IMG/VR virus record: IMGVR_UViG_3300043434_000693
Location: 32,241 to 96,240 of that record
Reading direction: 5' to 3' (one strand)
DNA length: 64,000 nucleotides
Origin: a virus
The notes under the pieces are model-generated. The model saw nothing but the letters and a program-made list of their open reading frames with translations, did no database searches and was not told the DNA's origin. Below, piece by piece: positions 5,653 to 22,990 of the stretch (positions within the stretch are counted from its first letter, which is position 1; each line of letters begins with the position of its first letter). A program made the translations under genes and the position numbers.

Positions 5653-6681
5653 TTATGCGTTTTCAATTTGGACAACTGATCCACTTGCTGCTGCGAAAGA
5701 CCATTGTGCAACTTCACCGGTTGCAAATAACCAATCTAAGTCACCACCGTCGTCAACTAAGCGGGTTAACTTTGCTTTATGTGCAGTTAATTTAGTAACA
5801 TAATATGTGTTACCGTTCGCATCTGTTGCAATAATTGTTGCTTCGCCTGCTGCTGGAGTATCTGCAACTAATGTCACACGGCCTACACCTTGTGCAGTCT
5901 TAACAATATACTTCTTGCTTCCAACTTGACGAAGAATATCGCCTAATACTGCTGATGTTCCATCTCCTGAAACATTTCCTGCTGCACCTGCTGCAGGGAC
6001 CCATGCAGTAATTTGAATAGCGTTTTCTTGATTGGTTACACTACCGACATTACCTGTATCAGTAGTTAATACTGCTGTTTTAGTTGCATTACCGGTCATA
6101 GTAATTGCAGGAGCAGAAACATATCCTGAACCTTTTTCGTCAATTGCTACTGCTAACACGCCCCATGTAATGTCAACTCTTAGATTGTTACCGGTGCCGC
6201 CTGTTGTAAACATACTAGCAACTGTGCTACCTGGATCACTAACTGCTGTAGCTCCATTATATGCAAGTACAGTATATGAACCGCCGTCTACAAGTTCAAC
6301 TGTAGTAGCTGCTCCGCCACCATCAACACTTTTAATTCTAAAACTTGCACGAGTAGTATAGGTACCGTCAACTGTTCCAGTGCCACCAGGTAAAGAACCG
6401 CTTCCTAATTCTACTAGTTCTTCATCGATATAGCTTCCGCCGCCATTATCAATACTAACTGATTTAACTACCATTGTTACAGTACCAGCTGTTGCAGTTA
6501 CACCAGTAGGTAAAGTTGGTGCTGCAAAGGTTACTGAAGGAACTGCAATGTAGTTATTGTTTGTTCCACCGATAGTTACACTTGCAACTCCTTGACCGCC
6601 AATTCCATAATTGTCAGCGGTTGTGCTTGCGGAACCGACATTGCGGTTACCAAAAAATTTCTTATTTAATGGGCGTCCCAT
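5653..6681 (-). CDS. Virion structural protein (possible head decoration)
   Basis: 342 aa, Gly/Thr/Ala-rich, with I...GSGY..AP repeats. Has its own late promoter and an AAAGGAG RBS; lies immediately downstream of the capsid gene. Confidence 0.55.
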   Translation of the reverse strand: MGRPLNKKFFGNRNVGSASTTADNYGIGGQGVASVTIGGTNNNYIAVPSVTFAAPTLPTGVTATAGTVTMVVKSVSIDNGGGSYIDEELVELGSGSLPGGTGTVDGTYTTRASFRIKSVDGGGAATTVELVDGGSYTVLAYNGATAVSDPGSTVASMFTTGGTGNNLRVDITWGVLAVAIDEKGSGYVSAPAITMTGNATKTAVLTTDTGNVGSVTNQENAIQITAWVPAAGAAGNVSGDGTSAVLGDILRQVGSKKYIVKTAQGVGRVTLVADTPAAGEATIIATDANGNTYYVTKLTAHKAKLTRLVDDGGDLDWLFATGEVAQWSFAAASGSVVQIENA

Positions 6682-6744
6682 TTGTTTTCTCCTTTAAAAC
6701 GTTCTAGGTTTACGCAGAGGGATTCTGCATAATTTTAGACAAAG

Positions 6745-6752
6745 TATTTATC
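6745..6752 (-). promoter_or_regulatory. T4-type late promoter box (GATAAATA)
   Basis: 7/8 match to TATAAATA; intergenic, upstream of the 6681 start. Confidence 0.6.
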
Positions 6753-6755
6753 AGA

Positions 6756-16005: not shown

Positions 16006-16226
16006 TTAGACTAGACCAATCTCAAATAGCAGATCATCTAATTGGGCTTGACAACGATGTTAAAAATTTCAAATTAGAGCTTTATCGGCTTGTTTGGTAT
16101 ATGCGCGGGGGCGTTAGTATCGATAATCTGTTGTATAATTTAAGTTATGACGACAGATCTGCGATGTACGCTGTTGTAAAAGACAACATCGAATTAACTA
16201 AAGAAACAAAAATGCCCCTTATTTAG
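15987..16226 (+). CDS. Start-less ORF in the -1 frame; probable frameshift extension of the gp26-like protein (gp51/GT-like)
   Basis: The frame opens after TAA at 15978-15980, passes the slippery T TTT TTC (15987-15993) and reads RESLIRLDQSQIADHLIGLDNDVKNFKLELYRLVWYMRGGVSIDNLLYNLSYDDRSAMYAVVKDNIELTKETKMPLI to TAG at 16224-16226. It fills the gap between neighbouring genes exactly. Confidence 0.75.
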   Translation, partial: FFRESLIRLDQSQIADHLIGLDNDVKNFKLELYRLVWYMRGGVSIDNLLYNLSYDDRSAMYAVVKDNIELTKETKMPLI

Positions 16227-17221
16227 AATGCTTTGATTCTAGTCTTCCCGGTTGCTGTATTTTTTTGAACATTTGGACTTATATCTACCCATGTTCCTTG
16301 ATCTGGGATTTGAGGAGTAGATACTTTAGGCTTTTCGCTCGGGGTAGGCGATTGTTTTGGTGCTGGTTGAGTTTTATTACTAGTCGACGGTTCAACTGAT
16401 TGATCAGTAGGTACTTCCGGTGATTGATCAGTAGATGTATCGGCTGTTTCCGAACCTTTAATTGCTGTAATTAATGCATTCTTTGCTTTATTATACAATG
16501 CACCCGAAATCTCAACACCTTCTGCTGTTATCAAAGTAGCAAGTGCTTTCCTTCCTTCTGCGGTATTAATCCATGCATAGAATGCTGCGGTAGCAGCAGG
16601 TGCTAGTGCAGACAATAACGGTCCCACAAATGGAATTGCACCTAAAACTTTAGTAATAATAGGACCACTAATTAACATTGCAGCAATGCTATCTACTAAT
16701 AAACCTTGTTCAAATAGTTTACGTTCGTTAAACGAAGCTTCTGTCATTTTATTGCTTGCTAGTTGTTGTTCGTATGCAGACATATGAACATAATATTGAT
16801 AAAAAGGTGCTATTAATCCTATTGATTTAACAAATTTTAACAACTTACCTGCACTAGACTTAAAAATTTCAAACCCTTTACCAATTTGAGATCCTATTTG
16901 AGCTGCACTTTGTGAAACTGATAATTCTCTAGCAAGTGCAGGTGCTTTTGACTGGGCAAGTTTTAATACTCGTGGATCATTAGCAAACTTCTTTCCTACA
17001 ATAGCTTCAATTTGTGCTGGATCTGTAGTTCTTATAGATCCATGATCTAAAATTTCATTAGCCCATGTTTGTGCTAAATTTTTTATAGCATCTGGCTTTG
17101 ATAAAGTATTTGCGATACTTGACATCGCCGAAGAAACACCAGGGATAGCAGAAGCCATCTTTGTAAATATTCCTGCTTCATTAAGATCATTATTTTCGGA
17201 AACAATTTCACTAATTTTCAT
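16223..17221 (-). CDS. Hypothetical late protein with hydrophobic helices (possible internal/ejected virion protein)
   Basis: 332 aa. N-terminus MKISEIVSE..DLNE, hydrophobic segments around residues 185-220 and a Pro/Thr/Ser-rich tail; preceded by a perfect late promoter. Confidence 0.6.
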   Translation of the reverse strand: MKISEIVSENNDLNEAGIFTKMASAIPGVSSAMSSIANTLSKPDAIKNLAQTWANEILDHGSIRTTDPAQIEAIVGKKFANDPRVLKLAQSKAPALARELSVSQSAAQIGSQIGKGFEIFKSSAGKLLKFVKSIGLIAPFYQYYVHMSAYEQQLASNKMTEASFNERKLFEQGLLVDSIAAMLISGPIITKVLGAIPFVGPLLSALAPAATAAFYAWINTAEGRKALATLITAEGVEISGALYNKAKNALITAIKGSETADTSTDQSPEVPTDQSVEPSTSNKTQPAPKQSPTPSEKPKVSTPQIPDQGTWVDISPNVQKNTATGKTRIKAF

Positions 17222-17242
17222 TTTTCAAAATCCTTATAGAAC

Positions 17243-17250
17243 TATTTATA
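17243..17250 (-). promoter_or_regulatory. Late promoter (perfect TATAAATA)
   Basis: Exact consensus 21 nt upstream of the 17221 ATG, abutting a hairpin. Confidence 0.75.
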
Positions 17251-17320
17251 GTTGAACTACGTTCAACTGTGTTTTCGCTATCGCTCAACACATATTGTTT
17301 CTTTTTTGAAGGGCGAAGCA
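17250..17320. repeat. Cluster of short inverted repeats with DNA-type GNA/GNNA loops
   Basis: Minus strand: AGTTGAAC-GTA-GTTCAACT (17250-17268) and TGTGTT-GA-GC-GATA-GC-GAA-AACACA (17268-17292). Plus strand: GCGAAGC (17313-17319). Confidence 0.6.
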
Positions 17321-17324
17321 TTTT

Positions 17325-17775
17325 TAAGATTATCTAGATTAATCGGCCATATTTCGCCCTGCGAGGGGCGAAAAAAATAAACTGGATATTATCTGAGTAT
17401 CACAGCCATATAGCGTTAGGACTATAATGTTACATAAAGATAGCATAAATCAATTAAATGTTATCTTTATGTAGCATTTCGTAGGCGGTCATCCGGTACC
17501 TACTCATCCCGTCTTCGTAATGACGGCGGTTTGCAAATATACGCTATAACATATATGCAAACGCGAAGGGTTTCCCTTCTCTTTTAGCCTTTATTGTTCT
17601 AGATAGTTTAAACCGGTTCTGTGAAGGCACATCCGATCATGGTCCTGTTAAGGATACTAAACTAAATCTCTGCTACAGCCCAGAAATCCCGCCTTGCGAC
17701 TTCACCAAGGGTAAGGACACCTAAATATCTTGCCGGTGTGAGCATTATCTGTAGTTAAATTGCCTAAATATGCCT
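17325..17775 (-). ncRNA. Putative large structured non-coding RNA (family not recognised)
   Basis: No ORF. About 46% GC over 17481-17740 by hand count, in an AT-rich genome. At least ten local stems plus long-range complementarities: 17409-17416/17541-17548, 17331-17338/17598-17605, 17394-17399/17501-17506 and 17587-17591/17624-17628. Strand inferred from the operon direction. Confidence 0.6.
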
Positions 17776-17778
17776 TAA

Positions 17779-18429
17779 TTATGATTTTTTATTAGATAGA
17801 AGCCTGCCACGAATAAACCCTTCGCTTGGACAATTTATAGACATTGTACAAGTAACTCCGTTATTCCACCAAACTTTACCTTTACGTTTTTCTTTAAGAA
17901 TTGCCTTTTGTTCATCAGTCCATTGGTAGTTGAACATAGAATTGTTTTCTCCTGATGTATGCGATCGAGGACCTCTACACGAATTAGAAATTTTTTGTCT
18001 ACGTTCTTCTGATATTGGACCGTATTTTTTACCTAAATGTGATTGTCTTTTCTTTTCTTTAGTTTCTTTTGAATCTTTAATGCCTAATCTGCTAGGCGGA
18101 GTTCTAGGATTCTTTTTATTATATTCACTTAGTTTAACATTTTTAAATCCGGGTGATTGCCCATCGATACCGTTTTCGATAACGCAATTTGCCCATTCTT
18201 TTGATTCTACTATCATATTTTTTACAGAAAAATCAATTGCAAACTTTTTACACTCTTCTAAATTGTCAAATTTCCAAATTTGAACAGTTTCAACATAGTT
18301 TCCATGCTGTATTACATGTCGTTTCCAATAAATCCCTGACCCTTTATATTTGTAAGGATCCTTAATAGTTTTACCAAAGTAGTTTAAACCTGTGACTAAA
18401 TGGCGTTTGTGATATAGATATGTAATCAC
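17779..18429 (-). CDS. Free-standing homing endonuclease (GIY-YIG-like N-terminus plus NUMOD3-type repeats)
   Basis: Motifs TYLYHKRH...GLNYFGKT and YKGSG.YW, then SKETKEKKRQSHLGK, SEERRQKIS, GENNSMF and KVWWNNG...GFIRGRL. GTG start overlaps the upstream TGA. Confidence 0.85.
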   Translation of the reverse strand: MITYLYHKRHLVTGLNYFGKTIKDPYKYKGSGIYWKRHVIQHGNYVETVQIWKFDNLEECKKFAIDFSVKNMIVESKEWANCVIENGIDGQSPGFKNVKLSEYNKKNPRTPPSRLGIKDSKETKEKKRQSHLGKKYGPISEERRQKISNSCRGPRSHTSGENNSMFNYQWTDEQKAILKEKRKGKVWWNNGVTCTMSINCPSEGFIRGRLLSNKKS

Positions 18430-21939: not shown

Positions 21940-22163
21940 TTACCTTCCCCAAATTGCAACACGAACCAATTAGAATATTTCTCTTCTGAAATATCTAAGT
22001 AACCGAGGCTTAAACAAAATGGATCCTCGGGATCAGAAAAAATTTTACAATGATATTGTTCTTCGAAAAATTCATAAAATTCTTTATCTGCAGGCAAATT
22101 ATGATTGTTCTTAACAAAATCGATTGCTTCATTAACCCTAGGGTCTTTTAAATCAATTCTCAT
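21936..22163 (-). CDS. Hypothetical protein
   Basis: 75 aa; overlaps both neighbours by 4 nt (ATGA coupling). Confidence 0.7.
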   Translation of the reverse strand: MRIDLKDPRVNEAIDFVKNNHNLPADKEFYEFFEEQYHCKIFSDPEDPFCLSLGYLDISEEKYSNWFVLQFGEGK

Positions 22164-22990
22164 TCGTGATCCTCATTATAACGTTTTACTGAAGCTTCGT
22201 ACTCTCCAGCACTAGTTCTAGTGTAGCTCGGGTTCATTCCGTTCATTTCAAGTATATCGTCTCTAATGTTTTGATTTCGTTTTTCAATGTTAATCACTCT
22301 TACAAAACTGTTTGTAACAGCAGCGGTAAAATATGCAAATGGGTTGTCTGATTTAGACTCGTCGAATTGTAATCCAATTTGAGTAAGTTGTAAAATTGCT
22401 TGGCCTCGCATTTCGTCATTGTAAGTATATCCTCGAACGTTTCCTCGAGTTGCGTATCTCTCACACAATTTTAACATCATACGAGCTAAAGTATCAGTTA
22501 TTTGTCCTGCGTTTTTATCGAAATGACCAGTATCTAACGGGCCTTTCCAGTGACTCTTTCCGACGCAGACAAGTTCGTCGCTTTCATTAAATTTCCAGTG
22601 TTGGAAAGGGGGGAAATTAACTTTTTCGTGTCGATCTGCGGTGTTTTTTGGATTTTTTTTGCGAGTAGAATTAAGGGGGATATGACTAAAGGACATAATT
22701 CTAAAAACCAAATCTAATTTATTAATTTTTTTATAATCAACTTCGCAATCAGCTTGTTTAATTTTTTCGCCTTCGGATTTTCTTCTAATATATTCAGCGT
22801 CAGCTAATCTCTTAGCTCTATTTCTTTTTGCTTCCGCAACAGTTCTAATATTAACCTTATCAATACCTTGTAAAATAATGTCGTATTGATGATATTCTGG
22901 TTTTTCAAACACACAGTAAGAACTTTTTGATCTGTGTATTTCTAATAACATGTCCTTGTTGTTAAGATAATTTATTTTTGATGGTACCAC
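22160..22990 (-). CDS. gp55: Late-transcription sigma factor (gp55-like)
   Basis: Motifs NYLNNKDML, GYTYNDEM and FDESKSDNPFAYFT...SFVRVINIEKR. Upstream of gp47/gp46 as in T4; GTG start with AGGAG RBS. Confidence 0.85.
   Translation of the reverse strand: MVPSKINYLNNKDMLLEIHRSKSSYCVFEKPEYHQYDIILQGIDKVNIRTVAEAKRNRAKRLADAEYIRRKSEGEKIKQADCEVDYKKINKLDLVFRIMSFSHIPLNSTRKKNPKNTADRHEKVNFPPFQHWKFNESDELVCVGKSHWKGPLDTGHFDKNAGQITDTLARMMLKLCERYATRGNVRGYTYNDEMRGQAILQLTQIGLQFDESKSDNPFAYFTAAVTNSFVRVINIEKRNQNIRDDILEMNGMNPSYTRTSAGEYEASVKRYNEDHE

Follow-up and report, generated by a model that had tools for sequence, protein, structure and literature searches.

Conserved stem-loops 3' of the Polynucleobacter-1 domain in giant freshwater T4-like phages: candidate tail of a ~500-nt non-coding RNA

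In its published description, Polynucleobacter-1 (Rfam RF01718) comprises the first 141 nt of the element and lies downstream of a PSSM2_218-like gene (cyanophage P-SSM2); purified phages that had been sequenced yielded no example (Weinberg et al. 2010; PMC2864571). The element analysed here agrees with that description in its 5' domain, which matches RF01718 at positions 17601-17744 (71 bits), and in its location 3' of a small PSSM2_218-related gene. It departs from the 2010 examples in residing in contigs of T4-like giant phages, and from the 141-nt Rfam model in a set of hairpins that are located 230-490 nt further 3' and are found in no catalogue. Like GOLLD and ROOL, it would be a large structured RNA of several domains that is carried by phages and has no assigned function; it has no Rfam match to either of them, and its architecture of twin boxes and a hairpin tail is different.

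The hairpins themselves resemble DNA mini-hairpins. These follow the sequence rule GCGNAGC/GCGNNAGC, with two G-C pairs, a sheared G-A pair, a loop of 3-4 and a free N, and their natural sites are the complementary-strand origins of G4, St-1 and alpha3, RSF1010 ssiA and the N4 virion-polymerase promoters (review, PMC13037366). According to the same review, r(GCGAAAGC) has a far lower stability than its DNA counterpart. Loops of the G..A type closed by C-G as well as tandem G.A in 5'-CGAG-3' contexts are stable in RNA too (see also PMC13037366). With these sites the present locus shares, as exact sequence matches, a GCGNNAGC apex in hairpin H2, C-GNA-G in H3 and GCGAAGC on the strand opposite to H1, with N free and C-G as the closing pair. 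The described sites act in single-stranded phage or plasmid DNA or together with a dedicated polymerase, whereas the hairpins reported here have longer covarying stems and stand at the end of a structured RNA gene in a double-stranded T4-like giant phage.

The window, i.e. the entire analysed stretch of 64,000 nucleotides, is part of a 96-kb IMG/VR virus record of a T4-like myophage. Its minus strand encodes gp55, gp47 and gp46 (SbcCD-like), a 144-aa GIY-YIG protein of the SegE type and two ORFs of 216 and 332 aa; a gp26-like baseplate hub gene is encoded on the plus strand. A gene-free gap of 557 nt (17222-17778) separates the 216-aa and 332-aa genes and folds as a whole far better than shuffled sequences (z = -4.6). 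The hairpin region (17243-17375) forms its 3' part. A pattern search for relatives of the downstream 332-aa protein returned none. The features are, in the direction of the minus strand:

22160-22990, minus: gene of the late sigma factor gp55
17601..17744, minus: 5' domain of the candidate RNA, Rfam Polynucleobacter-1 (RF01718; 71.4 bits, gathering score 37, E = 2.8e-14)
17410..17600, minus: pseudoknotted middle of the RNA body, with covariation-supported stacks including two pseudoknots
17388..17397, minus: twin box 1, CTC-AGATAAT; 7-letter box the same as in box 2 in 83 of 83 distinct homologues, found with a search pattern that allowed any letter at two positions per copy
17352..17373, minus: hairpin H0 between the twin boxes, UUUCGCCC / GGGCGAAA; 7 pairs, 99.7% paired, 5 pairs changed on both sides
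17329..17338, minus: twin box 2, TCT-AGATAAT; same basis as twin box 1
17313..17319: relic of hairpin H1, GC-UUC-GC on minus, which is GCGAAGC on plus; only 2 bp left in the window
17293..17312, minus: A-rich single-stranded spacer between H1 and H2; 13 of 20 purines on the sense strand
17269..17292, minus: hairpin H2; 5-bp outer stem, GA / GAA internal loop, 2-bp GC stem, GAUA loop
17250..17268, minus: hairpin H3, AGTTGAAC-GTA-GTTCAACT; 8-bp stem, loop GUA closed by C-G
17243..17250, minus: T4-type late promoter box TATAAATA, read directly; overlaps the last base of H3
17219..17221, minus: start codon of the downstream 332-aa gene (16223-17221), from the ORF list; relatives begin MKV/MKI at the same place

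An earlier note on this DNA had described a c-GTA-g hairpin with an 8-bp stem (17250-17268) and a hairpin TGTGTT-GA-GC-GATA-GC-GAA-AACACA (17268-17292) on the minus strand as well as GCGAAGC on the plus strand (17313-17319). Direct reading confirmed all three, the last of which is what remains of H1. Judged from the window alone, the sequence evidence for hairpins is modest and the motifs occur at frequencies near chance: GCGAAGC is present in 4 copies (2.6 expected) and GAGCGNNAGCGA in one (0.7 expected), and H2 and H3 together fold with z = -3.5 as RNA and z = -4.1 as DNA. The GCGAAGC stretch, in which only 2 bp flank the loop, does not fold in the RNA or the DNA energy model, and the value of 0 kcal/mol from nearest-neighbour DNA folding was obtained with a parameter set from which the special stability of mini-hairpins is missing.

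The signal comes from comparison. A homologous gap is carried at the same place by 80 contigs with gp46 identities of 65-76%, and 53 tails were aligned, from which RNAalifold recovered the three hairpins. Across these relatives 92% of the cells pair, and 125 double-change cells compare with 30 in shuffles (0/500) and a pairing of 32-40% in slid controls. A pattern scan added ~80 more loci, and a tail covariance model aligned 83 distinct sequences. This larger set contains 421 double-change cells vs 113 in shuffles (0/500), with 31-45% pairing in slid controls; covariation is seen in H0, in H1, in the outer stem and the two apex pairs of H2, and in H3. Chance palindromes in an AT-rich gap, without function, would agree with the near-expected motif counts of the single window. 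The excess of double changes, reached in none of the shuffles, and the poor pairing of the slid controls refute such an origin of the hairpins, which we regard as extremely improbable. Homologs had been expected to keep GNA/GNNA loops while their stems change, and both the 53- and the 83-sequence sets bear this out: H2 and H3 retain G-N(-N)-A, and H1 retains UUC, for which the plus strand reads GAA.

The tail runs from box 1 through H0, box 2 and H1 to a linker that is A-rich and differs in length between sequences, and ends with H2 and H3. Among the 83 distinct sequences the box reads AGATAAT in 36, GGATAAT in 21, GGATGAT in 13, AGATGAT in 12 and ACATGAA in one; the last, locus L069, has several letters altered in both twin boxes at once. 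The possibility that box 1 pairs with the letters preceding box 2 (AGAU/AUCU) was rejected, since ACAUGAA of L069 breaks it without compensation and the boxes change as direct repeats. No complementary partner of the boxes was found at a consistent place within +/-10 kb. Neither the box nor GCGAAGC is a genome-wide promoter or terminator motif: AGATAAT is intergenic in 10% of cases against a background of 6%, and the copies of GCGAAGC elsewhere lack a hairpin context. The loops of H0 are mostly G-Y-N-A closed by C-G, those of four bases mostly G-Y-Y-A.

Hairpin H1 is reduced in the window and in its closest relative L018, both of which have lost the outer stem. In other relatives it forms covarying stems of 4-6 bp (AACGC, AAGUGC, AACUGC, AAUGC, AACUAC, UCGUC and others) around a loop that reads UUC in 50 of 53 sequences, UCC in two and UUU in one, so that the plus strand has GAA or GGA in 52 of 53. 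Only in the window (17305-17373, minus) and in L018, complementarity exists between the altered H1 region UUCGCCCU and AGGGCGAA, which is the 3' arm of H0; the UUCGCCC copy at H1 can pair with GGGCGAA of this arm, a pairing used by the minimum-energy fold of the window's tail. The spacer between H1 and H2 ranges from 0 to ~45 nt in relatives and is A-rich throughout. Hairpin H2, whose outer and inner stems both covary, has the apex GCGATAGC in the window; in 42 of the 53 sequences the apex conforms precisely to GCGNNAGC, with GCGAAAGC and GCGTTAGC among the variants. The two sides of its internal loop read GA in 49 and GAA in 41 of these 53 sequences. In H3 all 8 pairs covary, with 98.6% pairing and 174 double-change cells vs one wobble cell in the 83 sequences, whose loops are GTA (33), GCA (16) and assorted G-N-N-A. 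Two further pairings were discarded: a contact of the H1 loop (CUUCG) with the H2 internal loop (CGAAG), of which the variants GAU, GCA, UCC and UUU are uncompensated, and an alternative pairing of H2 and H3 arms, whose stems show no correlated change.

The local stem-loops of the tail (17397-17250) are preceded by a pseudoknotted body (17744-17410). In pseudoknot 1, positions 17541-17547 pair with 17410-17416 (7 bp, 26 double-change cells); pseudoknot 2, a stack of 5 bp, has 39 such cells. When the full-length alignment was screened for covariation, the screen confirmed the helices of the body, in which G.U pairs make up 11%, placed the end of the last pseudoknot strand at 17410, just before twin box 1, and detected no long-range covariation of H1-H3 with the body. 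A long AT-rich hairpin is inserted in the body of the window (17423-17475, minus); it occurs otherwise only in L018 and, in another form, in L042. This lineage-specific insert contains the lowest-GC 40-mer of the gap (17423-17462).

RF01718 scored above its cut-off in the records of 46 of 50 relatives, with one copy each. The tail model likewise matched once per record, always directly 3' of the Polynucleobacter-1 domain and in the same orientation, and a single copy is also present in a 356-kb relative rated 96% complete. The site, one per genome, is located downstream of gp55-gp47-gp46 and the small GIY-YIG gene. In relatives the RNA directly follows a GIY-YIG-like ORF of 141-150 aa and thus keeps the context 3' of a small PSSM2_218-like gene; in the window the 216-aa ORF is interposed. 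This ORF (17779-18429, minus), wedged between the GIY-YIG gene and the RNA, is missing in relatives and has no Pfam or PHROG match; its halves (residues 2-93 and 114-210) each resemble ~94-aa products of other viral contigs. Two divergent members of the family, L069 (4373-4890) and L087 (11978-12590), differ in their 5' head, which escapes recognition by RF01718. The boxes (ACATGAA) and the hairpins H1, H2 and H3 are all present in L069; in L087 only H2-H3 were recognised.

At the level of sequence, the alignments demonstrate that it is the gene-sense strand on which the stem-loops of the tail fold, that selection on them is strong and that they invariably accompany the body. With a probability of about one half, we propose that these hairpins make up the 3' tail of a single orphan non-coding RNA of giant freshwater T4-like phages, the extended Polynucleobacter-1 or twin-box RNA of ~500 nt, which in the window would run on the minus strand from ~17744 to 17250, its ends being those that we infer. 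Several observations argue for a tail made of RNA: the stable fold of the gap, the catalogued family in the 5' domain and the covariation-supported pseudoknots in the middle; the single tail per record, directly 3' of that domain and co-oriented with it, with covariation in H0-H3; and the orientation of the element, which is that of the flanking genes, with no terminator between body and tail. On the gene-sense strand G.U exceeds A.C, with 24 vs 2 in the tail and 71 vs 22 over the whole element (strict filter). RNA linkers are usually A-rich, and the linker between H1 and H2 is A-rich on the sense strand. Loops of the G..A type closed by C-G and tandem G.A in 5'-CGAG-3' contexts are also familiar as stable elements of RNA.

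This RNA-tail reading needs the fewest assumptions. The stem-loops would be compact, very stable caps in the transcript, closing and protecting the 3' end of the RNA, and would stop or insulate early read-through just before the late promoter of the next gene; a protein or RNA partner would be presented with the G..A loops and, in H2, with the GA/GAA internal loop. Such caps would share with RNA hairpins that have GNRA or UUCG loops, and with the intrinsic terminators of T4-type phages, their short and stable form and their place where a transcription unit ends; C-G-closed G..A loops and tandem G.A are RNA motifs as well. The tail hairpins differ from these in having a pyrimidine at the third position in about half of the H2 tetraloops, no U-tract and nearly no wobble pairs.

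The downstream boundary of the tail is marked by TATAAATA at 17243-17250 (minus), 22 nt before the ATG, which qualifies as a T4-type late promoter. ATAAATA follows H3 within 0-23 nt in most of ~58 loci, and in the 356-kb relative TATAAATA is intergenic in 67% of its copies, only 15 in number, against a background of 6%. In the loci L010-L089, the late box 0-25 nt after H3 is often part of a longer word, GATAAATATC or GTGATAAATATCAC, which may represent an extended late-promoter consensus for this phage group. Since the 332-aa gene has its own late promoter after H3, its late transcripts would lack the hairpins. In three loci (L023, L025 and L075) a convergent baseplate-hub gene takes the place of the downstream gene; H2-H3 are kept, and H3 is found exactly at the junction. 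The retention of H2-H3 with the RNA at these loci indicates that the tail is part of the RNA element rather than the leader of the downstream gene. A leader function or a sequestration of the ribosome-binding site for the 332-aa gene was rejected on the same ground and on account of the late promoter that lies between H3 and the RBS.

The position of H3, abutting the late promoter box in most loci and the exact junction with the convergent gene in three, would also suit a device acting solely as a transcription or mRNA boundary, independent of the RNA body, that ends or protects the early gp55-gp47-gp46-GIY-YIG transcript and blocks read-through into the late gene at TATAAATA; L087, which retains H2-H3 although its twin boxes were not recognised, points the same way. 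However, nearly all of the ~58 loci have at most 2-4 U in the 8 nt after H3 (the window reads AUAAAUAG), and the stem of H3 is A/U-rich, unlike the G+C-rich hairpin and U-tract of an intrinsic terminator. The U-run of H0 is on its 5' side, and a match of the terminator scan at 17247-17271 falls on the plus strand, where no gene ends; a canonical intrinsic terminator was hence rejected. Moreover, twin boxes, a UUC loop, G..A loops and an internal loop that is invariably GA/GAA would be superfluous in a plain terminator, and the presumed terminator hairpins elsewhere in this phage type have UUCG loops. A mere boundary device is thus quite doubtful.

The tail follows sequence rules other than those of the body. 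Its loops obey C-GN(N)A-G with a free third base. In H2 the tetraloops divide into 26 GNRA vs 25 GNYA, i.e. the third-position purine rule of RNA GNRA tetraloops does not apply, and in H3 52 G-N-A triloops interchange with tetraloops (9 GNRA vs 6 GNYA). This free third base, the exchange of triloops and tetraloops and the dissimilarity of tail and body all argue against a tail of RNA. One-sided (wobble) and double changes stand at 5:92 in H1-H3 (1:174 in H3) vs 121:307 in the body (Fisher p ~1e-7, from non-independent cells), and this near-absence of wobble argues in the same direction. For the invariant UUC loop of H1 there is no explanation at the level of RNA; read on the opposite strand, it is GAA. 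Further points against RNA are the preference of the phage type's other hairpins for C-UUCG-G, the lack of covariation between H1-H3 and the body, the missing U-tract after H3 and the low stability of r(GCGAAAGC) relative to its DNA form (PMC13037366). The term DNA-type, which the earlier note had applied to the hairpins, therefore holds statistically for the free third loop base, the GCGNNAGC apex of H2, the GAA loop on the opposite strand of H1 and the scarcity of wobble. These loop rules, the opposite-strand H1 loop and the avoidance of wobble are real and are without a good explanation at the RNA level.

On their account a tail that acts at the DNA level is kept as a rival reading, though an unlikely one. 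The RNA body would position the 3' part as a persistent R-loop, serving as an RNA-primed origin or a single-strand initiation signal; the displaced gene-sense strand would fold into SSB-resistant H0, H2 and H3, with GCGAAGC (H1) on the template strand, and the mini-hairpins would hold the bubble open or mark a loading site for primase or helicase. The DNA mini-hairpin rule with its free N, which suits the tail better than the GNRA rule of RNA, is followed by GCGATAGC at the H2 apex and by GCGAAGC at 17313-17319 on the plus strand, H2 apices of relatives include GCGAAAGC as in G4 and GCGTTAGC as in St-1/alpha3, and H1 has GCGAAGC on plus in 50 of 53 sequences and GGA in two. Wobble is avoided, contrary to the RNA body; G..A loops are unusual among the other intergenic hairpins of the phage type (3 of 35 in the 356-kb relative, which favour C-UUCG-G); and the single-copy element adjoins recombination and replication genes. 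The asymmetry of gene-sense folding fits a transcript and, equally well, the displaced non-template DNA strand of an R-loop. Conversely, the strand bias of the A-rich linker points to RNA, and the tail has only two short repeats, which are not enriched elsewhere.

The evidence for an origin proper was sought in skew, base composition and gene content. The earlier note had likened the region to an RNA-primed origin or primosome site, a comparison of which the structural part, a long structured transcript followed by C-G-closed GNA/GNNA mini-hairpins, stands; the proposed role gained no direct support from skew or AT content. Over the 96-kb contig the cumulative GC and AT skew minima fall at 21.8-22.8 kb of the window, ~5 kb from the hairpins, at the divergence of gp55 and the structural genes, which is a switch of gene orientation. 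Skew in the 356-kb relative tracks the coding strand; its global minimum is at 338 kb and the element at 90.3-90.8 kb (~250 kb apart). In such phages skew mostly tracks transcription, and minima away from the element are therefore weak evidence against an origin. There is no AT-rich unwinding element, as 17243-17375 has 37.6% GC compared with 35.5% for the window, and the only very AT-rich stretch nearby is the hairpin inserted in the body (17423-17462). The MotA activation domain (PF09114) was found neither in the 96%-complete relative nor in the own contig, in a search without positive control; on that result a T4-type middle promoter would not be expected. ColE1 RNA II and the T4 origins oriF/oriG could, by inference only, be likened to this locus, as its transcript might stay hybridised in its 3' part near conserved signals; of the features of such R-loop origins, no unwinding element, MotA-type promoter, skew or copy-number signal or RNase H site could be demonstrated here.

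Cultured phages provided no further example of the tail. A blastn search with the gap returned nothing among them, and the tail model had no match in Melnitz-3, the closest cultured phage by the GIY-YIG protein, or near gp46 of Pseudomonas phage PA5oct, the closest by gp46; the tail would hence not be a general requirement. In PA5oct (L109, NC_071039.1, 75.7-77.2 kb; gp46 identity 48.5%) the order gp55-gp47-gp46 is kept, and a RusA-like resolvase occupies the GIY-YIG slot, followed by ~1.5 kb in which the annotated ORFs are all tiny and a gap of 660 nt carries no annotation. This region (75.7-77.2 kb) matched neither the tail model nor Rfam. The results on skew, AT content, MotA and relatives neither exclude nor support an origin, and action of the tail at the DNA level appears unlikely to us on the whole of the evidence. 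More speculatively, and with rather low odds, the twin-box RNA could be the primer precursor of a giant T4-like phage origin, in which the body positions the transcript, the mini-hairpins of the tail hold the R-loop open and recruit primase or helicase, and the boxes are iteron-like sites for a co-evolving initiator.

If the proposed single RNA is correct, Polynucleobacter-1, an orphan motif since 2010, would be the head of a ~500-nt RNA kept once per genome, at a fixed place, in giant freshwater T4-like phages. What is new is a tail with sequence rules other than those of the body, namely DNA mini-hairpin loops, almost no wobble and, in one of the hairpins, a stable loop that belongs to the opposite strand. 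If it acts only as RNA, it marks the true 3' boundary of the family and belongs in the family model; a role at the DNA level would make it the first sequence-defined origin type for a large group of uncultured phages. The window contains one more match to a catalogued RNA, Rfam freshwater-2 (RF02980), at 6679-6753 on the minus strand (52.5 bits vs a gathering score of 49.9), directly upstream of a 342-aa gene (5653-6681).
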